Shown one piece after another: positions 436 to 39,130 of a DNA stretch of 64,000 bases (its first letter is position 1; each line of letters starts with the position of its first letter). Source of the stretch: Fidelibacterota bacterium MT.SAG.2 (GTDB lineage: Bacteria > Fidelibacterota > SORT01); contig SORU01000005.1 in assembly GCA_004402915.1 (NCBI GenBank), forward strand, positions 7,559-71,558, read 5' to 3'. The position numbers and the translations under genes were made by a program. Under the pieces are notes generated by a model. That model searched no databases. It was not told the origin of the DNA and worked only from the letters and a program-made list of their open reading frames with translations.

Positions 436-795
436 ATGAAACTGTTTGTAAAGAATCTGTCATTAGACGTCACTGCAGATCAACTCTTGGAAGCTTTTGA
501 AGAACATGGCTGGGTGGACTCGGTCGATATAATAAAAAACGGGAATACGGGCGAATCATTGGGTTTCGGATTTGTGGTGATGTCGACTTCCGCAGATGCT
601 CAAAAGGCAGTGACAGGTTTAAACGGGAAAGAGCTATTCGGAAGTATTATTGAAGTCACAGAAGATCGAAGGGACCGGAGTGAACGACGTGAGTTCGAGG
701 AACGCCGGAGTTCTAAACCGAGGAGAAAACTCTCTGACAGACGTGCTGATCATTCCAACAGACGGGATGAGGAAAACAGAAGGCACGATCTATAG
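436..795 (+). CDS. RRM-type RNA-binding protein with Arg-rich (D/E)RR repeat tail
   Basis: RNP2 LFVKNL and RNP1 LGFGFVVM motifs are present. The C-terminal 45 aa carry RR dipeptides spaced about every 6 residues. Confidence 0.85.
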   Translation: MKLFVKNLSLDVTADQLLEAFEEHGWVDSVDIIKNGNTGESLGFGFVVMSTSADAQKAVTGLNGKELFGSIIEVTEDRRDRSERREFEERRSSKPRRKLSDRRADHSNRRDEENRRHDL

Positions 796-1863: not shown

Positions 1864-2382
1864 ATGATTAGTTTGAATCTAACGCTGCTGCCGATATTAA
1901 TGATGTTTCTATTTCTATCGGATAAGCCGAAAGTAGGCGAACCCGCTCCGAATTTCAGTGGGCTGTCGACAGGAGGTAAGACCATCACTTTAGATGATTA
2001 CAAGGGGAGATGGGTGATACTATATTTCTATCCGAAAGCGTTCACACACGGTTGCACAATTGAGTCGTGCGGATTGAGGGATAATTATGCAGAACTGACA
2101 AAACTTAACGCAGAGGTGATAGGAGTAAGTTTTGACGACATAGAAAAACAGGAAGAATTTAAAAAAGCAAATGAACTGCCGTTCGACCTCATAAGCGATA
2201 AGGATAAATCTATTGCGAAAAGTTATGATACAGTCGGTCTTATGAATTTATATGCAAAACGCAAAACCTTTCTCATCGATCCCGAAGGTAAGCTTGCATA
2301 TATATTCGATAAGGTAGATACAGCGACGCACCCGCAGGATATAATCGATGTGTTAGCCGGAATCATAAAGGCTTCCGATTGA
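1864..2382 (+). CDS. peroxiredoxin (AhpC/TSA family, Bcp-like) with signal/TM segment
   Basis: The FYPKAFTHGCTIESC active-site context is typical of thiol peroxidases. Confidence 0.85.
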   Translation: MISLNLTLLPILMMFLFLSDKPKVGEPAPNFSGLSTGGKTITLDDYKGRWVILYFYPKAFTHGCTIESCGLRDNYAELTKLNAEVIGVSFDDIEKQEEFKKANELPFDLISDKDKSIAKSYDTVGLMNLYAKRKTFLIDPEGKLAYIFDKVDTATHPQDIIDVLAGIIKASD

Positions 2383-2390
2383 CGCTTGAA

Positions 2391-2561
2391 ATGAGAACAA
2401 AGTGTGAAAAATGTAACAGGCATTTGGCCAAAGATGCCAATGCATGTATTTGTACGTATGAATGTGCATTCTGAGCTGAATGTTCTGATGAGATGAATCA
2501 TGTTTGTCCAAACTGCTCGGGAGAACTTGTCAAACGGCCGAGAATGTTCTCCGCAGATTAG
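2391..2561 (+). CDS. DUF1272-like Cys-rich small protein, candidate selenoprotein (in-frame TGA at 2472-2474)
   Basis: ATG 2391 to TAG 2559-2561 reads MRTKCEKCNRHLAKDANACICTYECAF[TGA]AECSDEMNHVCPNCSGELVKRPRMFSAD. The pattern CxxC...IC.YEC.F(C/U)xxC...CPNC.GEL..RP.R matches my recollection of DUF1272. The TGA sits on a conserved Cys position, and selA/selB are in the window. Confidence 0.55.
2482..2526 (+). promoter_or_regulatory. candidate bacterial SECIS stem-loop downstream of UGA 2472
   Basis: This is a hand fold. Pairings are 2482-2486/2522-2526, 2489-2492/2516-2519 and 2499-2500/2514-2515, then a bulged U2501, then 2502-2505/2510-2513, closing on the apical loop GUCC. The bulged U and the G/U in the loop recall the E. 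coli fdhF SECIS layout. Confidence 0.35.
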
Positions 2562-2889: not shown

Positions 2890-4006
2890 ATGAATTTACA
2901 AAAGTCTATTCCTGGCTTTTTGATTTCAGTGCTACTTTTCTATAACGTCGCATCTCCTTTCTCATTTCCGGACGATAGAATTGTGATTGCGGTTGTGGAC
3001 TTCAAAAACACCGGTCAAGATGAGAGTTATAATTTCCTCGAAGAAACCATTTCTGAGGCTATCATAACAAAACTTGCTAAGGGCGGAAACTTTGAAATAG
3101 TCGAGAGATCTCGGCTTAAGGAAGCATTGAAGGAAATGGAACTTGGTATGACCGGATTATTGGATGAACAAACCGCTGTCGAAGTTGGAAGAGCTGTCGG
3201 GGCGAACGCGATCTTACTGGGGAGCTTCGTTTCAATCGGAAACGTTATTCGTATTAACGCCCGTCTTACTAGACGTAGAAACGAGCAGAATAATCAATGC
3301 AGAAATTGTGCAAGGCAGTGTAGGGAAAGAAATTTTTAATCTCATGGACAAATTGGCCGATTTGATCGAGGCACAGCTCCTTGGTGAAACTGAACCGATT
3401 GTGCAGGATCGACCGATTCCAGTAGAGGCACAGCTCCTTGGTGAAGCTAAACCGATTGTGCAGGATCGACCGATTCCAGTAAAGGCTGAGAAGAAAATTG
3501 ATTCATGGTTTTTTCGTATAGCAGTTGGCGCAGCTAATAACATTTATCCTGAAGAACTCCAGGACGTACTGGATGAATTGGAGGATATACCCGATATTAA
3601 CAAAATATCATTTAATTTTGATTTCAGTCTTTACCGATCATTGTCGGATCGAAAGACAATGATCGGATTTACATACAACGGATCGGGTGATGCCTATGAA
3701 TTTAAGGGTGATGAATTGAATTTCTATCAATATCTCTTCGGGATTAGCCTGATACACTATCCTGGGAATATAATTGGCAATGGATTATATGTTCGCGGGG
3801 ATTTGGGGACAGCATTTTTGATATTTGATAGTAGTTTTGGAAATGCAGAACAAAGCGAGAACGGATTCGGATACCAATTGGGCGCAGGCTATTCCTTACC
3901 CACGGCGATAGGGATAGAGTTTGATGCGATGCTAAGCTATGGTGGTAAAAAAATTGAAGACAAAGATTATTCAGTGGTTTTATTCAATTTTGGGGTTTCG
4001 TTCTAG
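2890..4006 (+). pseudogene. CsgG/LpoB-like lipoprotein domain fused to a C-terminal beta-barrel-like region, interrupted by a +1 frameshift near 3268
   Basis: ORF 2890-3339 ends ...LLGSFVSIGNVIRINARL. The family-typical continuation LDVETSRIINAEIVQGS is found in the +1 frame of ORF 3164-4006. The junction reads gcc cgt ctt a cta gac. The C-terminus ends in FNFGVSF. Confidence 0.6.
3368..3481 (+). repeat. 2 x 57-bp in-frame tandem duplication (EAQLLGE[TA][EK]PIVQDRPIPV[EK])
   Basis: Copies at 3368-3424 and 3425-3481 differ at only a few bases. Confidence 0.9.
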
Positions 4007-5429: not shown

Positions 5430-5876
5430 TTACACTCTTCTTTCAGAAATTGCACGACGATCGGAAGACAATCTTCTTGTAATTATCAGCCTTCTCCCCA
5501 ATTCAACTCTTCTTTCTGAGTTGAACCGTTCGTTATATGCATAACTCACTGATTTTACACGCCGATCGGAAGCGATACGTCTATCTTCGTTGTTCCTCCG
5601 TTCTTCCGAAGAACGCCTTTCGTCAATATTCCTCCGGTCATCTTCTTCCCTCACAACACTGAGTTTTAACGCTTTGCCAAAAAGGACGACACCATTGACA
5701 TTTTGTATCATATCAAGCGCCTCAAGCCTGTTGGGTGCTTCTACAAACCCTCCCGGTTGACCGCTAATATTATCGTTTTTTATAGTTAGCGATTCTACTT
5801 CACCCCACAACTCAAACAATTTTATCAGATCATTGTTTGCGACAGAGTGAGTCAGATTTTCAACAAATATCTTCAT
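5430..5876 (-). CDS. RRM-type RNA-binding protein with long hexad (D/E)RR repeat tail
   Basis: The likely start MKIFVENL (ATG 5876) is preceded by AAGGGA. An RRM fold is followed by DDRR-NIDERR-SSEERR-NNEDRR-IASDRR...VELGRR-LIITRR-LSSDRR-AISERR. Confidence 0.8.
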   Translation of the reverse strand: MKIFVENLTHSVANNDLIKLFELWGEVESLTIKNDNISGQPGGFVEAPNRLEALDMIQNVNGVVLFGKALKLSVVREEDDRRNIDERRSSEERRNNEDRRIASDRRVKSVSYAYNERFNSERRVELGRRLIITRRLSSDRRAISERRV

Positions 5877-6212
5877 TGCATTCCCTTTTGGTATTAAATA
5901 CACAAACTACTTGCCAGCTCAAACCTGTTGAACTGAAAAACTCTTACATCATATACACTATTTACTCGTTTAATATAATATGATCTATATGCCCTGTCAA
6001 GGAGATTTCTATGAATTATGAAAAAAAAGTAATTATTATATATAAAAATCTGATAACACATTGTTATTATGTATGTTACAGAAATAGTTTATAAGTATGC
6101 TACTATCGAGAAAATCCACGATTTTATTAGATAAGAAGTGATTGGTTCTCTATATTAAGATTTTCGCATAATAAAAGATGTTCAACAATCAAATATTGGA
6201 GAGGAATAAATC

Positions 6213-6788: not shown

Positions 6789-7574
6789 ATGATCGATTCG
6801 TGCAGACTCTGTGGAAGTAAAAACTTCTATCTCTACTATACTCTTGGCAATGACCAACAATTTAGATATTATAGATGCAGGGAATGTGATCTCGTTAATT
6901 ACGATTTGGAAGGAGGTTTAGACCAGGAACAATACGCTGAAGAATTTATTGATCCGGCTGACGGGAACCATATTATCAACATTCATCAGGACGACACATA
7001 CGATTTTCTTAAAAAGAATATCCACTCAAAAGGTAGAATATTTGAAATCGGCTGCGGAAACGGCCGGGTTCTTTATTTGGCAAGAGAAGATGGCTGGGAG
7101 GTCAAGGGACTGGAGCTGTCTGAGTTTCTCGCTGAAAAGGTCACAAAAAGATTGAATATGGAAATCGAAGTGGCAAATTTTTTAGAACTGAATCCTGACC
7201 CGAACGATAAACATGATCTCATAATTCTGAGACATGTCCTCGAACATCTTATCGACCCGCTGATTGCTATGGATAAAATCAGTAACCTTCTGAAACCTGA
7301 AGGAAAAGTGTTGATGGAATTTCCAAACATACAGGGAATTGATCTTCGGGTAAAACGCCTCTTATCAAAAATGGGGAGAAGGAAAAAATTCGCTGAAGAT
7401 TTCGTTCCCGGTCATGTGAATGAGTATTCAAAACGATCATATAAAAATCTTTTAACAAAAACCGGATTCACTCTGCTCAAATGGGAAACATATTCATCGA
7501 ATCCGCGTAAAAATTTCATATTCAATAGAATCCATATCGGAAACAAGGCGAGAGCGCTGATCCAAAAGGTCTGA
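6789..7574 (+). CDS. class I SAM-dependent methyltransferase with N-terminal CxxC...CxxC zinc ribbon
   Basis: The motif I context is EIGCGNGRVL. CRLCGS...CRECD lies at the N-terminus. Confidence 0.75.
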   Translation: MIDSCRLCGSKNFYLYYTLGNDQQFRYYRCRECDLVNYDLEGGLDQEQYAEEFIDPADGNHIINIHQDDTYDFLKKNIHSKGRIFEIGCGNGRVLYLAREDGWEVKGLELSEFLAEKVTKRLNMEIEVANFLELNPDPNDKHDLIILRHVLEHLIDPLIAMDKISNLLKPEGKVLMEFPNIQGIDLRVKRLLSKMGRRKKFAEDFVPGHVNEYSKRSYKNLLTKTGFTLLKWETYSSNPRKNFIFNRIHIGNKARALIQKV

Positions 7575-30867: not shown

Positions 30868-32082
30868 ATGAAAACACTGATTGAGGATATAGAAGTGAAC
30901 GATAAAAAACTAAATCCGGGTGAACGCAGAGCGCTCATTTTTGCCTCAACCGGACATGCCCTTGTTCATTCGTTCATGTTGATATTGCCGGCAGTTCTGA
31001 TACCTATCATGAACGAATTCAGTATCAGCGCAACGGAAGTCGGATTTATCGGAACACTCTCATACCTTATGTTCGGTTTGGGAGCGATTCCCTCAGGCTG
31101 GCTCACCGATAAATACGGTTCCCGCGGGCTTGTTGTAATTTGCTTGATCGGTTCGGGAGCCTCATCTCTGTTTATCGGGTTTTCAACCGGTTTGGCAATG
31201 CTTTACGGAGGTATGATATCATTAGGTCTTTTCACGAGCATCTATCATCCAGCCGGGCTTGCGATGATCTCAAGAAGGATAAGAAATATTCCGAGAGCGC
31301 TTGGGTATCACGGTATATTCGGGAATGTCGGACTCGCGGGAGCGCCTGTGGTATCAGGTCTGATCGCGAGCTATGGGGAGTGGAGGGATGCATATCTGCT
31401 CTTCGGTACAATCTCGCTTCTGATCGGAATTTATTTTTATCTAAAGCCGTTGACCAAAGGAAAATTGGAGGAAAATGAGGCTAACCACAGAGAAGGAGGA
31501 ACTCTTTTTCCCGAGTTGATCATTTTTTATCTCTCGTCGATCATCTTCGGCTTTGTATACAGAGGAACGCTTACATTCATGCCTTATCTCTTTACTCATA
31601 AGGTGACTCTGTGGGAAGGATTGGACCCGATAGCTGTGGGGGGAATGGTGACGACCGCCGCTCTTCTCACGGGGATGTTCGGGCAGTGGTTAGGCGGCAG
31701 AGCAGCAGAGAGATATTCTCTGACTTTGACTCTCATTCCGCTCTGGACGATAGTCTCGATTTCTCTTATGTTCATGGGTATGACGGCTCAATATTTACTT
31801 GTGATATCGGCGTTCATATTTACCATATTTATCTTTGGCGGTCAGCCTGTAGGCAACACCCTGCTGGCTAGCTACAGCTCGCTGAAAAGCAGAGGGAAGG
31901 GTTATGGGATGAACATCGCCATCGGATTCGGGATCGGTTCGTTTTCTGCAACGTTGAGCGGTTACATAGCTGAAAAATATGGAATCGGTGAAGTATTCAT
32001 ATTTCTGAGTATTATTATGATCCCCGGAATTCTATTGGCGTTCTGGATGCATCTGCTCGGCAGGAAAAGAGCAGCTATTTAA
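30868..32082 (+). CDS. MFS transporter
   Basis: There are about 12 predicted hydrophobic helices and the MFS-like loop GWLTDKYGSRG. The start is moved to MKTLIEDIE, downstream of the terminator. Confidence 0.75.
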   Translation: MKTLIEDIEVNDKKLNPGERRALIFASTGHALVHSFMLILPAVLIPIMNEFSISATEVGFIGTLSYLMFGLGAIPSGWLTDKYGSRGLVVICLIGSGASSLFIGFSTGLAMLYGGMISLGLFTSIYHPAGLAMISRRIRNIPRALGYHGIFGNVGLAGAPVVSGLIASYGEWRDAYLLFGTISLLIGIYFYLKPLTKGKLEENEANHREGGTLFPELIIFYLSSIIFGFVYRGTLTFMPYLFTHKVTLWEGLDPIAVGGMVTTAALLTGMFGQWLGGRAAERYSLTLTLIPLWTIVSISLMFMGMTAQYLLVISAFIFTIFIFGGQPVGNTLLASYSSLKSRGKGYGMNIAIGFGIGSFSATLSGYIAEKYGIGEVFIFLSIIMIPGILLAFWMHLLGRKRAAI

Positions 32083-32731
32083 TTAAGATCATCTTTCGCG
32101 TCTGAATAAATTCATCCGCAGTCAGCCGATAAAAATACACACCGCTCGCTAAATTGGACGCATTCCATTCAATAGAATGACTGCCTGCCGGCTGGATGCC
32201 TTCAATTAAACTCTCAACTTCTCTACCATGAATATCATAGATCAAAAGCGAAACACGACTCGCATTAGATAGAGTGAAACTGATCGTTGTAGAAGGATTG
32301 AATGGATTCGGATAATTTGGATATAAGTTGAAAGATCGGGAAAAAGCTTCCTCATCCTCTACTGTTACTACACCCCTTATGGAAAAATTCTCGCTGGTGC
32401 CAGTATAGCCTTCACCGACGTTATCCATGTAAATTCTTATTCTGCCCTCATCGATAGTCAGCTGGGGAACAACCCATTGATAGCTCCGTTCCGGAATGTC
32501 AATATCCAACTTAATTTTCTCCCATGTAATTCCGCCATCCGGAGAGAAAAATAAATCCCAATTATTCTGTGGATGTGGTACTACTAAAGTCCATTCTATC
32601 GTCAGAGTATCCCCTACGACAAAGACTTCCCCGCCAGCGGGGAAATTGAGGGCGACGTGCGCATTTGCCTTGCTTGATAGCAGCAACACTATTACTACAG
32701 AGAATGATCCTATAATTGATTTAAATTTCAT
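32075..32731 (-). CDS. small secreted protein with T9SS C-terminal sorting domain
   Basis: It has a signal peptide and the C-terminal YPNYPNPFNPSTTISFTL...IYDIHGREV...ASGVYFYRLTA...KMILIK. Confidence 0.7.
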   Translation of the reverse strand: MKFKSIIGSFSVVIVLLLSSKANAHVALNFPAGGEVFVVGDTLTIEWTLVVPHPQNNWDLFFSPDGGITWEKIKLDIDIPERSYQWVVPQLTIDEGRIRIYMDNVGEGYTGTSENFSIRGVVTVEDEEAFSRSFNLYPNYPNPFNPSTTISFTLSNASRVSLLIYDIHGREVESLIEGIQPAGSHSIEWNASNLASGVYFYRLTADEFIQTRKMILIK

Positions 32732-33232: not shown

Positions 33233-34648
33233 ATGACAGAGAGAAAAGAGATTCAAGAGGAACTAAAATCGCTGCCGTCAGTGGACGCGCTCCTGTTGCG
33301 CCCTGAATTGAAGAATATCGCTCTCCCGCATGAGCTGGTATTATCCGCATTAAGGGCATCATTGGAGGAAGAGCGGCAGTTGATACTGAACGGAGAGAGG
33401 AATGGAGAATTTTCAAAAGAAGAGACGGCTCAACGGCTGGCAGAATCCGTTTCAAAGAAACTCCATCAGGATTTCCTGCCGAGTATGAAAAAAGTCATAA
33501 ACGCCACAGGTATAATACTGCACACTAATTTAGGCAGGGCGCCTCTATCCAATTCGGTGCTGAAAAAAATGAATGAAATTTCAGGAGGTTATACGAATCT
33601 TGAAATTAGTTTGGAAACCGGAAAGCGCTTCAACAGGGATCAGCACATCGAGGAGTTGTTAAAAGCGCTGACAGGGGCAGAGTCCGTAGCCATCGTAAAT
33701 AACAATGCCGCCGCTGTTCTTTTAGCTATTAACACTTTCGCATATAAAAAGGAGTGTATAGTTTCGCGGGGACAGTTGGTCGAAATAGGCGGTTCGTTCC
33801 GGATGCCTGATGTGATGGAACGAGCAGGTACAAAAATGGTTGAAATAGGCACCACGAACCGCACGCACATGAAAGATTTCGAGAATGCGATCAGTGAAAA
33901 CAGCGGAGCAATCATACTCGTTCATACGAGCAATTATAAGATTTCAGGATTCACAAAATTCCCTGAACACAAAGAGATAGTGGAGCTAGCGCATAAACAT
34001 TCCATACCCGTGATATTCGATTTGGGAAGCGGCGCTTTGACGGATCTGACGCGATTCGGACTCCCAGGAGGGGAACTCGTGTCTGAAGTTGTGAAGACTG
34101 GGATAGATTTAGTGACATTTTCGGGAGATAAACTTTTAGGTGGTCCTCAGTCCGGCTTGCTTGTAGGTTCAAAGACCGTAATTGATAAGTGTAAAGAAAA
34201 TCCTCTGATGCGTGTCTTGCGGTGCGATAAAGTGACATTGACCGCAATGGAGGAAACACTGAAACTTTTTGCCGAACCGGAGCAACTTTCGGAAACACAT
34301 GCAGCCTATTCCCTTTTCTCAACACCATTGGAAGAGTTGAAAAAAAGGGCGGAAAATGCCGTCGTCAACTTAAACAAAAAGAGTGATGAATATTCGATTG
34401 AGATCAGAGAGGTAACCGGCGAGGCGGGAAGCGGATCGCTGCCCGTTGCAGAACTTGCGAGTATTGCGATCTGTCTTAAAAGTGAAACTGACAGTGTCGA
34501 AGCGCTGTCGAGGAAATTCAGATCGTTAGAAACTCCGATTATCGGATATATCAAAAATGACACATTTTTTCTTGATATGAGAGCACTGTTTGAAGAGGAG
34601 TTGAAACTCTTCTCCGACTCGATCCATGAGGTTATCGGTTCCGAATGA
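33233..34648 (+). CDS. selA: L-seryl-tRNA(Sec) selenium transferase SelA
   Basis: The PLP-lysine context is FSGDKLLGGPQSG. The N-terminus LPSVDALL and the 471-aa length are typical. Confidence 0.9.
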   Translation: MTERKEIQEELKSLPSVDALLLRPELKNIALPHELVLSALRASLEEERQLILNGERNGEFSKEETAQRLAESVSKKLHQDFLPSMKKVINATGIILHTNLGRAPLSNSVLKKMNEISGGYTNLEISLETGKRFNRDQHIEELLKALTGAESVAIVNNNAAAVLLAINTFAYKKECIVSRGQLVEIGGSFRMPDVMERAGTKMVEIGTTNRTHMKDFENAISENSGAIILVHTSNYKISGFTKFPEHKEIVELAHKHSIPVIFDLGSGALTDLTRFGLPGGELVSEVVKTGIDLVTFSGDKLLGGPQSGLLVGSKTVIDKCKENPLMRVLRCDKVTLTAMEETLKLFAEPEQLSETHAAYSLFSTPLEELKKRAENAVVNLNKKSDEYSIEIREVTGEAGSGSLPVAELASIAICLKSETDSVEALSRKFRSLETPIIGYIKNDTFFLDMRALFEEELKLFSDSIHEVIGSE

Positions 34649-36513
34649 GTCATGTGGTCATAGGCACAGCAGGGCACATCGATCATGGTAAAACCGCTCT
34701 CGTAAAGGCTCTGACGGGAAAAGACACGGATAGTCTGCCCGAAGAGAAATCAAGAGGCGTAACTATCGATATAGGATTTGCGTTTCTCGGTGATAACGCT
34801 ACGATTATCGATGTACCGGGGCATGAGCGATTTATAAAGAACATGGTCACCGGCGTTTCTACAATTTCATACGTGATGCTCGTTATAGCTGCCGATGACG
34901 GTGTGATGCCTCAAACGAGAGAGCATCTCGATATTTTGAGCTTGCTCGGGGTAGAGGATGGCATGATAGTCATCAACAAAATTGATCTTGTTGAAGAGAG
35001 CTGGCTTGATATGGTTATCGAGGACGTCAAAAAATTGACAAAGGGAACCTTTTTGGAAAACGCATCGATCTTCAAGGCATCCGCCATTAAGGGAGATGGG
35101 ATAGAAAAAATAAAAGAGACGTTGATCGCTGTGATCGCCGATAGAAAAGAGAAGGTTGACAAGGGGTATTTTCGTCTGCCTGTAGACCGCTCATTTTCGG
35201 TAAAGGGATTCGGAACTGTCGTAACGGGAACCGTAGTTTCGGGCTCGGTTCAGAAGGGAGACAGCGTGGAAATTCTACCCGGCGGGATCGAGGCAAAAAT
35301 TCGGGGAATACAGCAGCACAATGAAGAGACAGCCGGAGCAAAATTGGGAGAAAGAGCCGCGCTGAATTTAAGCGGAGTAAGCACGGAAGATGTGATCAGG
35401 GGGAGCCATATAGCGGCAAAAAATTACCTTAATTCAACCATGATTTTCGAGGCAAATTTGAATCTCCTCGGCACCGCGCCGAAGCCGCTTTCGAGCCGAA
35501 CCAGAGTCCGTCTTCATCTCGGAACGGGAGAAGTAATGGGCAGGATTTCACTCTTAGGCTCAGCTGAAATCGAACCGGGTGGAAACGGATTTGTCCAGGT
35601 TTTTCTCGAAAAAGAAGTTCCGGTAGCGGTCAAGGATAAATTCATTATACGAAGGTATTCGCCTCCGCTGACGATAGGCGGCGGAGTTGTTTTAAAGCTG
35701 TCAAAATCGAGATATAAACCGAAAGATAGAGAGATATACGAGTTACTTAAAGTAATAAATGAAGAGAATGACGTTGACACAGCAAAGATGCTGATTTCAA
35801 GAAAAAACGGTAACGGAATAGATGAACAGGAGTTAGGCGTCGAACTCGGGATAGCATCGGAAAAAGCTCTGAATTTGCTGAAGGAACTTGAAAAGTCATC
35901 TCTCATATTGGCGATCGGTCAGGGAATCAACATGCGGTGGTACGGCGCTGATTCGCTGACTGAATTGAAAGAATCTATCGTCTCCAAGATAGCCAGGTTT
36001 TTCGAGGAAAATCCCGTTTCAGTCGGAATAAAACTCTCCGAAATAAAGGAACTGTTAGAGTGCTCTTCCCAAGCCTTCGATTTCATAATTGAAAATCTGT
36101 CAGACGAAAAAAAGATTTCAAAATCCGGAGCATTGATCACTCTGAGAGGGGGTGAAAGCAGCGATACTGAAGAGGTCGAAGAGGCGATAACGTCGCTGCG
36201 ATACAGCGCCGCAACTTCGTCGGAATTAGCGAAGAATCTTGGCAAAGAAAACAAGGAGATCTATCAGCTTATCAAACGCCTGATTCAGGACGAGAAAGTG
36301 ATCAGACTTGATGGAGATTTATTTATTCACACAACTCTGATAGAAGAATTAATAGCAGAGATCGAAAAGCATTTCGAAAAGAGCGGAGAACTAAGCGTTT
36401 CAGATCTGAAAGATATTACAGGTGTATCCAGAAAATACGCGATACCGCTACTGCTCTATCTCGATGAAAACAGCGTCACAAGGAGAGAGGGAAATGTGAG
36501 GGTCAAAGCCTGA
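34645..36513 (+). CDS. selB: selenocysteine-specific translation elongation factor SelB
   Basis: G motifs [16 protein letters not shown] and NKIDL are present, with a long winged-helix C-terminal extension. The ATGA overlap with selA supports operon linkage. Confidence 0.9.
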
Positions 36514-36514
36514 G

Positions 36515-39130
36515 ATGACGACAAAAGCGAAAGATGAGCTTACACCTCTCATGAAGCAATATTGGAAGATAAAAGCATCGAACCCCGATTCAATTCTGCT
36601 TTACCGGATGGGTGATTTTTATGAGACGTTCGCCGAAGATGCGAAAATTACGTCAAAAATTCTTGGAATAACTCTCACCGCTCGCGGAAAAGACGAAAAA
36701 GGCTCGAAAATTGCCTTAGCGGGTTTTCCCTGGCATTCTCTCGACACATATCTGCATAAATTAGTGAAAAGCGGCTACAAAGTGGCGATTTGCGAACAGG
36801 TGGAAGATCCTTCTCTATCCAAAGGGATCGTAAAAAGGGAGGTGGTTGAGATCGTTACGCCCGGCACGACGCTTTCCGATAAGATGCTTGAGGACGGGAA
36901 GAACAATTATATAGCCTCGATCTGCATAATTGACAATGAGGTCGGACTCTCATGGGCGGATGCTTCTACGGGCGCGTTTTCGGTTTCTGAAACAGACAAG
37001 ATGTCTCTGAATGAACGGTTGAGGTCGATTGATCCTTCAGAGATCCTGATACAACAGACGGACGGCGAGGGAGATGAGAATTTTCTGAACGGGATGTCGG
37101 CGATGGTGACGTCATTGGAAGATTGGATATTTTCGACGGATTATGCATATGAGCAGCTGACGGAGCAATTTAAAACGAAGAATCTCAAAGGATTCGGAAT
37201 TGAAGATCTGACGGTGGGCGTAAAGAGCGCCGGAGCTCTTCTTCATTACCTCGAACAGAATCATAAAGAGAGTTTGAGGCACTTTACGACAATTTCCGCT
37301 CACAACGAAGATTCCTTTATGGGATTGGATCAAACTACCGTCAGGAATTTAGAACTATTTGAACCGATGATGAGCGGCGCACAGCAGAGTTCTCTGTTAG
37401 ACGTTATAAATCGAACGAAAACGGCGATGGGTTCCCGGCTGTTACGTAATTGGCTCCGCAGTCCGCTCACTGAAATTAGCGACATAGAGAAACGGTTGGA
37501 GGTAGTGGACTTTTTTTCAGAGGAAAGCAATCTGAGGGATGAACTGAGAGCGCGCCTCGGAAATTTGAATGACATAGAGCGGCTGCTTTCAAGACTATCC
37601 TCCGGACGGGCATTGCCGAGGGACCTCGTTGCATTGAAACAGAGCCTGGCGCATATTCCGGAGCTCAAATTGCTGCTCAATTCCGTTAAGAACAAGGAAG
37701 TCAAAGCTTTGATCTCTCAATCGACCGATCTGAGCGAGCTGACCGGACTGATAAAATCCGCATTGAATGACGAACCACCGGCAACGAAAACAGACGGCGG
37801 ATATATCAGAGACGGTTATGACGAAGAATTAGATCAGCTTCGTTCTATCTCGTCATCTGGAAAGGAATGGATTGCCTCAATGCAGGCAAAGGAGAGGAAG
37901 CGGCTCGGAATTCCTTCGCTGAAGATAGGTTTTAACAAGGTCTTCGGTTACTATCTTGAAGTAACGAAAACGCACATAAGCAAGGTACCTGAGGATTTCA
38001 TAAGGAAGCAGACCCTTGTAAACACCGAGCGGTATATAACGCCTGAACTCAAAGAATATGAAGAGAAGGTTCTCGGTGCCGAGGAAAAGATAAAAGCGTT
38101 AGAGCTGAAACTTTTCGATAAAGTCCTTGATAAGGTATTGGATTCGGCGGGCGAGATTCAGTGGAATGCCGATGTTATAGCCAGGCTTGACGTTCTTTCG
38201 ACGTTCGGTCTGACGGCGGAGAGCGAAAATTGGACTCGTCCCGTTTTTGAGGATTCGACTCGTATCAGCATCAAAGACGGCAGGCACCCCGTTGTTGAAG
38301 ATCTACTGCCGCCGGGAGAGTCGTTCGTTCCGAATGACCTTGAAACCGACTGCCGTGACAGGCAGATACACCTCGTTACAGGACCGAACATGGCGGGTAA
38401 ATCGACTTATCTCCGACAGATAGCGATGATAGTTCTCCTCGCTCAGATAGGGAGTTTTGTTCCTGCGAGTAAATTGAAAATGGGAATAGTGGACAAGCTT
38501 TTCACTCGGGTAGGCGCATCGGATAACCTCGCCGGTGGTGAGAGTACCTTCTTAGTCGAGATGAACGAAACTGCGAATATACTCAATAACGCGACGGAGA
38601 GAAGTCTGATACTGTTGGACGAGATCGGGAGGGGAACAAGCACGTACGACGGTCTTTCGATAGCGTGGTCAGTGACCGAATATCTGCATAATAATCCGAA
38701 AGTAGCCGCCAAGACGCTTTTTGCCACTCATTATCATGAATTAGCGGAACTTGCGGAGCTGCTTCCGAGGGTTCATAATCTAAATGTAGCGGTAAAGGAG
38801 TACGGAGATAAAATTGTCTTTTTACGAAAAATAATTCCGGGAAGCTCCGACCATAGTTACGGAATTCAGGTGGCGCAGCTGGCAGGACTCCCCCGCTCCG
38901 TGATAGAAAGAGCTAAGGAAGTCCTCTGGGCATTGGAAACGCAATACTCTTCGCTGCAGAAACGGCGTGTGAAAAAAGAGAGTGTTTCCGAATATCAAAT
39001 AGGTATATTTGATGAGAAGGAAGCCAAGCTTAAAGAGGAACTTAAAAAGATCGACATTAACAGCATGACCCCGTTGGAAGCTATGGCGAAGCTGGACGAA
39101 CTTAAAAAAAAATGGGGATTGGAGAATTAA
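36515..39130 (+). CDS. mutS: DNA mismatch repair protein MutS
   Basis: TPLMKQYW, GPNMAGKSTYLRQ and DEIGRGTSTYDG motifs are present. Confidence 0.95.
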   Translation: MTTKAKDELTPLMKQYWKIKASNPDSILLYRMGDFYETFAEDAKITSKILGITLTARGKDEKGSKIALAGFPWHSLDTYLHKLVKSGYKVAICEQVEDPSLSKGIVKREVVEIVTPGTTLSDKMLEDGKNNYIASICIIDNEVGLSWADASTGAFSVSETDKMSLNERLRSIDPSEILIQQTDGEGDENFLNGMSAMVTSLEDWIFSTDYAYEQLTEQFKTKNLKGFGIEDLTVGVKSAGALLHYLEQNHKESLRHFTTISAHNEDSFMGLDQTTVRNLELFEPMMSGAQQSSLLDVINRTKTAMGSRLLRNWLRSPLTEISDIEKRLEVVDFFSEESNLRDELRARLGNLNDIERLLSRLSSGRALPRDLVALKQSLAHIPELKLLLNSVKNKEVKALISQSTDLSELTGLIKSALNDEPPATKTDGGYIRDGYDEELDQLRSISSSGKEWIASMQAKERKRLGIPSLKIGFNKVFGYYLEVTKTHISKVPEDFIRKQTLVNTERYITPELKEYEEKVLGAEEKIKALELKLFDKVLDKVLDSAGEIQWNADVIARLDVLSTFGLTAESENWTRPVFEDSTRISIKDGRHPVVEDLLPPGESFVPNDLETDCRDRQIHLVTGPNMAGKSTYLRQIAMIVLLAQIGSFVPASKLKMGIVDKLFTRVGASDNLAGGESTFLVEMNETANILNNATERSLILLDEIGRGTSTYDGLSIAWSVTEYLHNNPKVAAKTLFATHYHELAELAELLPRVHNLNVAVKEYGDKIVFLRKIIPGSSDHSYGIQVAQLAGLPRSVIERAKEVLWALETQYSSLQKRRVKKESVSEYQIGIFDEKEAKLKEELKKIDINSMTPLEAMAKLDELKKKWGLEN

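Follow-up and report, generated by a model that had tools for sequence, protein, structure and literature searches.

An in-frame TGA at an invariant cysteine of a peroxiredoxin-coupled DUF1272 gene in Fidelibacterota bacterium MT.SAG.2: a probable nonsense allele with features of a selenoprotein gene

The 64,000-nucleotide stretch of contig SORU01000005.1 of the uncultured Fidelibacterota (Marinimicrobia) bacterium MT.SAG.2 analysed here (the window; positions 7,559 to 71,558 of the contig, GenBank assembly GCA_004402915.1) contains, directly downstream of a peroxiredoxin gene, a small gene of the DUF1272 family that is interrupted in frame by a TGA at positions 2472-2474. A first, sequence-only reading of the window proposed that this TGA encodes selenocysteine (Sec). 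The alignment of the TGA with a conserved Cys and the presence of SelA and SelB support that proposal, but it is not the one best supported overall, in that the hairpin following the TGA is unspecific, the TGA is recent, and the gene has been lost repeatedly among relatives. We consider it probable, albeit with appreciable doubt, that the TGA is an ordinary nonsense mutation in a decaying DUF1272 gene.

The interrupted frame (2379/2391-2561, plus strand) has the TGA as its single internal stop and, from ATG 2391 to TAG 2559-2561, translates as MRTKCEKCNRHLAKDANACICTYECAF*AECSDEMNHVCPNCSGELVKRPRMFSAD*. With the TGA read as Cys, the read-through product scores 77.1 bits on the Pfam profile PF06906 (DUF1272; gathering threshold 25.3), and the parts before and after the TGA, scored alone, each exceed the threshold (33.3 and 35.8 bits, respectively); no NCBIfam model matched the read-through product. 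PF06906 is a family of small eight-Cys proteins, function unknown, comprising at least 8000 clusters at 90% identity, with 1548 representatives at 50% identity reaching E <= 0.001. An alignment of 122 of its sequences has eight conserved Cys (CxxC, C, C, CxxC, CxxC), seven of them strictly invariant; at the position of the TGA, Cys is present in 121/122 homologues, the lone other residue being Arg (in P0106, ECTFRAEC), which, if encoded by CGA or AGA, would be a single step away from TGA. The window protein shares with the family the pattern CxxC...IC.[YF]EC.F[C]xxC...CPNC.GEL..RP and the xLEM N terminus, but differs from it in that seven of the eight Cys are present and the sixth is the TGA, and in having an extra, non-conserved Cys at position 23, counted from a TTG start. 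The family assignment made in the sequence-only reading, its placing of the TGA on the first Cys of the FCxxC motif, and its recognition of family-like sequence after the TGA are thus all upheld. Conservation downstream of the TGA does not distinguish Sec from nonsense, because a young nonsense allele predicts the same.

The gene layout needed partial revision. The frame with a single TGA and the coupling to the peroxiredoxin gene stand, but translation probably begins at TTG 2379 rather than at ATG 2391, as had been assumed, since orthologues begin (M)xLEM and the TTG gives the family-typical N terminus (M)TLEM; an N-terminal xTLEM is common to orthologues P0001-P0006, L031, L032, and L034. 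The TTG start overlaps the peroxiredoxin stop codon by 4 nt (TTGA), an arrangement also present in the orthologues. At this locus the list of open reading frames (ORFs) holds only the 31-residue piece encoded by 2379-2474, and an exact look-up of this N-terminal fragment in a gene-call index returned no record. If the TGA were read through as Sec, the Sec-containing peptide expected is ECAFUAECSDEMNHVCPNCSGELVK, and the peptides encoded beyond the TGA would include AECSDEMNHVCPNCSGELVK and HVCPNCSGELVK.

The history of the critical codon can be followed in the loci of relatives, which were fetched using close peroxiredoxin homologues as handles and read in the region 3' of the peroxiredoxin gene (Table 1). 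L001, L030, and the relic in L028 have TGC at this codon, and the intact outgroups have either TGT or TGC; among the syntenic relatives, TGA is present only in the window, L021, and L025, which form a shallow MT.SAG.2-like clade. Because the relatives have Cys codons and TGA is confined to this shallow clade, the ancestral codon is, on the available loci, TGC, and the TGA a recent change by a single transversion. Nearer relatives show no fewer than three independent losses of the gene by deletion or replacement, namely in L024, in L026/L027, and in L030 with L028/L029.

Table 1. State of the DUF1272 gene downstream of the peroxiredoxin gene in the window and its relatives
Locus	Peroxiredoxin identity to window (protein unless stated)	DUF1272
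L031, L032/L033, L034	~77-81% (protein)	intact, Cys form, TGT or TGC
L030	84%	codons ~5-24 deleted; CADC to CADR, CPNC to CPDC
L028/L029	85%	deletion junction of L030, further loss
L026/L027	88-90%	another deletion, leaving the stub 'LTLGMKIER*'
L024 (MT.SAG.3)	96%	first eight codons kept, followed by ~300 nt of unrelated sequence
L001	~97% (nucleotide)	full length, Cys form (TGC); Phe at second Cys of first CxxC
window, L021, L025	98-100%	TGA

Two of these loci merit separate comment. L001 (5001-5180) has the sole full-length Cys allele close to the window, and its Cys-to-Phe substitution (TGT to TTT, C8F) is at an invariant position. The ~300-nt replacement sequence in L024 (SORT01000001.1, 2484-2800) contains a repeat-like motif, TCGTCATTGCGAGCGAAGCG, and may be a small mobile or repetitive element.

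Estimates of selection by the Nei-Gojobori method are consistent with a gene that was long maintained. Between the window clade and the intact outgroups, the ratio of non-synonymous to synonymous rates (dN/dS) is 0.07-0.15 for DUF1272 and 0.08-0.10 for the peroxiredoxin; because the outgroup values for DUF1272 are peroxiredoxin-like, the gene is, by this measure, one that was functional for most of its history. Between the window and L001, DUF1272 has 1 synonymous and 4 non-synonymous differences, plus the TGA/TGC difference (omega ~0.95), compared with 11 synonymous and 5 non-synonymous differences in the peroxiredoxin (omega 0.12; Fisher p = 0.056 versus DUF1272), which suggests, on small counts, that constraint on DUF1272 is relaxed in the shallow clade.

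The TGA strains have also exchanged DNA. Their DUF1272 sequences are identical over the 137 nt common to all three, the window and L021 differing at one synonymous core site and by four differences in the tail and stop codon, and their peroxiredoxin genes differ at 4-10% of fourfold sites. The peroxiredoxin gene of L025 is L001-like (6/519 differences) and its DUF1272 gene is the window allele; over the upstream 1.95 kb, comparison of L025 with the window, L021, and L001 reveals strongly mosaic site patterns. Such patterns indicate frequent homologous recombination in this deep-sea Marinimicrobia population. Interpretation of the near-zero DUF1272 divergence among TGA strains as purifying selection was rejected, L025 being a recombinant and the segment recently exchanged. 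Interpretation of the drop in identity past the stop codon, window versus L001, as a sign of coding constraint was likewise rejected, since the ~1.5 kb of extra sequence in the window marks a rearrangement breakpoint.

The sequence of events that we consider probable starts from what the loci show: deeper relatives encode an intact protein with all eight Cys, its translation coupled to that of the peroxiredoxin; purifying selection acted over the long branch to these relatives; and nearer lineages have repeatedly had the gene removed or broken. In this Marinimicrobia lineage, where the small DUF1272 gene would be dispensable, one transversion (TGC to TGA) would then have arisen. Ribosomes stopping at the TGA would yield a fragment of no more than 31 residues, bearing four of the eight family-invariant Cys ligands and presumably non-functional; the sequence after the TGA would still be protein-like only through the youth of the lesion; and the TGA allele would have moved among strain backgrounds by recombination. 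Disruption of the neighbouring gene at 2890-4006 by a frameshift may also be counted for a nonsense allele. With ordinary young pseudogenes the window has in common a pre-stop codon change of TGC to TGA, deletions in sister lineages, and an omega of ~1, and its nearest intact relative (L001) has lost another invariant Cys.

A number of observations nevertheless weigh against an ordinary nonsense mutation, two of which set the window apart from typical young pseudogenes: no second lesion was found in the TGA allele, either in the window, in L021, or in the covered part of L025, and the host, on its intact SelA and SelB sequences, is an organism that probably decodes Sec, which would allow rescue by recoding. 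The TGA is exactly on the Cys of a CxxC pair, which is the classic Sec/Cys-pair signature, and it is followed, within the allowed 16-37 nt, by a hairpin with an Escherichia coli fdhF-like architecture (bulged U and 4-nt loop starting with GU). TGA forms in three other lineages (L007, L009, and L023) are otherwise intact, their post-TGA parts scoring 31-36 bits on DUF1272. The contrast in dN/dS between DUF1272 and peroxiredoxin involves very few substitutions, and the TGA allele is present on differing peroxiredoxin backgrounds, as a useful allele could also be if it spread. Finally, since selenoprotein genes are often lost in sister genomes (PMC1794560), loss of the gene in relatives is not decisive alone.

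The alternative to which these points lead is a genuine selenoprotein, arising by a very recent Cys-to-Sec change in DUF1272, with a pre-existing hairpin being used as a Sec insertion sequence (SECIS) by the Marinimicrobia SelB; we regard this as unlikely, though deserving of serious consideration. The product would be a 60-residue protein with Sec in a UxxC motif, perhaps serving as a redox-sensitive zinc site in cooperation with the co-translated peroxiredoxin. The location of the TGA at an invariant Cys with both flanks scoring on DUF1272, the presence of both SelA and SelB, and the occurrence of the TGA allele in three assemblies, including one with a recombinant background, all favour such a product. 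In families where Sec members are rare and Cys members numerous, change also usually runs from Cys to Sec, and the majority of these families have UxxC/CxxU-type redox motifs (PMC1794560).

The hairpin itself, however, contributes little. The sequence-only reading described a hand-folded stem-loop at 2482-2526 as compatible with a bacterial SECIS (bSECIS); this stem-loop, comprising GUUCU/AGAAC, a UGAG/CUC(G/A) helix, CA/UG, a bulged U, GUUU/AAAC, and a GUCC loop, does exist, and is the minimum-free-energy fold of the L021 allele. It also conforms to the published bSECIS model (an apical loop of 3-9 nt with G at position 1 or 2, an upper stem of 4-16 bp, a UGA-to-loop distance of 16-37 nt, and energy <= -7.5 kcal/mol; PMC13188914), as implemented here with recovery of the E. 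coli fdhF element as positive control. But it is not specific to the TGA form (Table 2): 3/5 TGA lineages and 3/4 Cys forms pass, i.e. TGA forms are not enriched, and the hairpin, inherited from the Cys form, is weaker in the window than in the Cys-form L001. Among 400 synonymous recodings of the window peptide, 88 (22%) pass the model and 76 do as well as the real sequence. Its folding energy does not improve on that of dinucleotide shuffles (z = +0.5 to +0.8), and plain minimum-free-energy folding of the post-TGA region gave no signal in any TGA lineage (z -0.7 to +1.2). Because Cys forms and recodings also pass, and shuffled sequences are equally stable, the hairpin is, on these comparisons, an inherited by-product of the HVCPNCSGEL codons that carries almost no evidential weight.

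Table 2. Evaluation of DUF1272 alleles with the bSECIS model
Allele	Critical codon	Result (energies in kcal/mol)
window	TGA	pass, -8.1; loop GUCC (G-U at positions 1-2), spacing 31 nt
L021	TGA	pass, -9.5
L007	TGA	nominal pass, -12.3
L019 (pseudogene)	TGA	pass
L009/L016	TGA	fail
L023	TGA	fail
L001	Cys	pass, -10.8; same hairpin as window
L031	Cys	pass, -9.6
L034	Cys	pass, -9.3
L032	Cys	fail

SelA and SelB of the host were correctly recognized in the sequence-only reading: encoded at 33233-36513, they are confirmed by TIGR00474 and TIGR00475, both with scores far above cutoff. The genetic code is standard, since TGA ends 20/65 long ORFs in the window. Searches of the 64-kb window with Rfam and ARAGORN found neither tRNA-Sec nor a SECIS family, the only tRNA detected being one tRNA-Met, and no tRNA-Sec was found near selA-selB-mutS. 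A second TGA-interrupted gene was sought in the window as a guide to the SECIS style of the host, but no credible example was found, so there is no other selenoprotein gene in the window by which the SECIS type might be calibrated, a point against the TGA encoding Sec. In this region (33233-39130) selA runs 4 nt into selB, and mutS begins 2 nt past the selB stop codon, suggesting a compact selA-selB-mutS arrangement.

Occurrences of TGA at the same codon elsewhere were sought with a degenerate DNA pattern (I-C-x-[FY]-E-C-x-[FY]-TGA-x-x-C), which was scanned against one genome per GTDB species and JGI metagenome contigs; 6 of the 22 hits, L021 among them, are real DUF1272 genes. TGA is present in four further lineages, i.e. 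L007, a Sideroxydans metagenome-assembled genome (MAG; JAVHQJ01); L009, a Bacteriovorax stolpii MAG (CAMASK01) that is identical to metagenome contig L016; L019; and L023. L019, which by inspection has two frameshifts as well as the TGA, is by these lesions a pseudogene. The otherwise intact forms in Sideroxydans (with a nominal SECIS pass), Bacteriovorax, and L023 count in favour of Sec; against it, of the other TGA lineages two lack a SECIS-like hairpin and one is the frameshifted pseudogene. The TGA- and Cys-containing orthologues to which the sequence-only reading looked for a check do both exist, but the TGA forms do not separate Sec from a young nonsense allele. Gene neighbourhoods of L007, L009, and L023 contain neither peroxiredoxin nor sel genes, and the peroxiredoxin link is therefore specific to the Marinimicrobia clade. 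By a rough estimate, a specific pre-stop codon is hit in ~1 in 10,000 gene copies, which would yield a handful of cases in a family of this kind.

The literature is silent on DUF1272 in this context. Neither 'DUF1272' nor 'PF06906' is mentioned in the selenoprotein papers and supplements searched; the supplement of a 2016 comparative study has no entries for Bacteriovorax or Sideroxydans; and the family is absent from the 119 prokaryotic selenoprotein families listed with Pfam/NCBIfam accessions in Table 1 of a 2026 review (PMC13188914). That DUF1272 is not among the described selenoprotein families, as the sequence-only reading stated, therefore holds for the literature searched, but absence from this table despite very large surveys also counts against the TGA encoding Sec, as does the loss of the gene across the clade. 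Searches based on Sec/Cys pairs have a relatively high false-positive rate, according to the selenoprotein literature. In comparison with predicted CxxC-derived selenoproteins, e.g. the 'dual CXXC motif small protein' (NF041197), HMA-type UxxC, and CYCXC proteins (PMC13188914), the window likewise combines a TGA/Cys pair within CxxC with numerous Cys homologues, a hairpin that conforms to the model, and a host that probably decodes Sec. By contrast with them, DUF1272 is a member of none of these families, the hairpin is not TGA-specific, the TGA arose very recently, and relatives show the gene in decay.

The probable role of the affected Cys also bears on the matter. Sequence matching identified no solved structures, its zinc-ribbon and RING hits being weak. 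For P0002, an intact orthologue, the AlphaFold2 model (predicted local distance difference test score 82.8) resembles RING/ZZ-type cross-brace two-zinc domains and also a small zinc protein from the 30S subunit of Saccharolobus (template modelling score 0.54-0.67; best E = 0.03, which is not significant). The predicted fold is alignable with RING/ZZ cross-brace domains and small ribosome-associated zinc proteins (chain 9fhl_a), and the spacing of its four Cys pairs is that of a cross-brace; it differs from RING/ZZ domains in that no sequence relationship was found and zinc binding is predicted from the model. If DUF1272 is a cross-brace, the Cys at the TGA position would share one Zn(Cys)4 site with the first CxxC, and this would be the same site as that struck by the Cys-to-Phe change in L001. 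Because the P0002 model resembles two-zinc cross-brace domains, this Cys is probably a structural zinc ligand rather than a typical redox Cys, which argues against its replacement by Sec.

A further possibility is that the TGA is a tolerated, leaky stop, at which near-cognate read-through (with Trp or Cys) gives a little full-length protein, the gene being crippled but not dead; such a transitional state could lead either to loss or to capture by Sec. UGA is the leakiest bacterial stop codon, and both the intact post-TGA frame in three assemblies and the TTGA coupling to the peroxiredoxin are compatible with leakage. We consider it improbable, however, as it has no specific sequence support, TGA is a normal stop codon in 20/65 ORFs, and a young mutation explains the intact downstream frame equally well. 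An artefact of sequencing or assembly is effectively refuted: the window does match a single-cell amplified genome (MT.SAG.2) and a neighbouring gene is frameshifted, but sequencing error as the source of the TGA was rejected because two independent metagenome assemblies, L021 (SMUY01404612.1; a near-identical allele with a differing 3' tail and downstream context) and L025 (ERZ27267426, found via its peroxiredoxin), have the same TGA and differ from the window at other sites.

Features of the window relevant to this analysis are given in Table 3. The peroxiredoxin scores 121.6 bits on the NCBIfam model for thioredoxin-dependent thiol peroxidase, which is under the equivalog cutoff of 140, and matches its counterpart in Candidatus Marinimicrobia bacterium MT.SAG.2 at 100% identity over 160 residues and the one in MT.SAG.3 at 96%. 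The gene order RRM / 25x-residue protein / AhpC / DUF1272 / sigma-70 is kept among the relatives. No terminator-like site was found between or after the peroxiredoxin and DUF1272 genes, and promoter-like matches at this locus were at chance level only.

Table 3. Features of the window
Feature	Position	Strand	Details
Peroxiredoxin, BCP/PrxQ type (AhpC-TSA), directly upstream of DUF1272	1864..2382	+	Pfam AhpC-TSA, 135.8 bits
DUF1272 frame with one TGA	2379..2561	+	probable start TTG 2379, (M)TLEM...; stop TAG 2559-2561
In-frame TGA at invariant Cys (first Cys of FCxxC), derived from TGC	2472..2474	+	homologue alignment and codons of relatives
Hairpin inside coding sequence	2482..2526	+	apical part 2499-2515 (CA-U-GUUU[GUCC]AAAC-UG); fits bSECIS model formally
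selA, L-seryl-tRNA(Sec) selenium transferase	33233..34648	+	TIGR00474, 553.8 bits, cutoff 267.9
selB, Sec-specific elongation factor	34645..36513	+	TIGR00475, 364.6 bits, cutoff 242.25

Several neighbouring genes have features of their own. The ORFs at 2890-3339 and 3164-4006 apparently constitute one CsgG/LpoB/FlgO-like lipoprotein gene with a +1 frameshift near 3262, at which '...VIRINARL' goes on as 'LDVETSRIINAE...'; the stitched 2890-4006 protein scores 54.8 bits on CsgG, and its LpoB and FlgO matches cross the junction. The ~1.5-kb segment containing this gene is missing from L001, L021, and the other relatives examined, in which the sigma-70 gene is directly 3' of the DUF1272 gene or its remnant. 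RRM-domain proteins encoded at 436-795 (plus strand) and 5430-5903 (minus strand) have long Arg/Glu/Asp/Ser-rich tails (RRDRSERREFEERRSS...), and synteny of the former gene with the peroxiredoxin locus is kept in all relatives. A 218-residue protein (32075-32731, minus strand) has, by eye, an apparent C-terminal sorting tail, which we take to be of the type IX secretion kind; this would fit the Marinimicrobia assignment.

The implications differ according to which reading is correct. There is a lesser chance that the locus captures the birth of DUF1272 as a new, undescribed selenoprotein family, in which a TGC-to-TGA change in deep-sea Marinimicrobia was rescued by a fortuitous coding-region hairpin, already present, that acts as a SECIS. 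If so, Sec would replace Cys in an apparent zinc-ligand position of a RING/ZZ-like domain co-translated with a peroxiredoxin, one family would be added to the ~119 known or predicted prokaryotic selenoprotein families, and the locus would be a live example of the origin of a new selenoprotein at the earliest stage of Cys-to-Sec conversion. If, as we think probable, the TGA is a nonsense mutation, the gene is a cautionary case, in that its TGA/Cys pair, conserved flanks, model-compliant SECIS-like element, TGA-bearing homologues, and host with SelA and SelB are the features from which new selenoproteins are usually called. The Cys-form controls reveal that the SECIS model is non-discriminating for this coding sequence, and, on the nonsense reading, it is dense sampling of close relatives that would reveal a gene in the midst of being lost.

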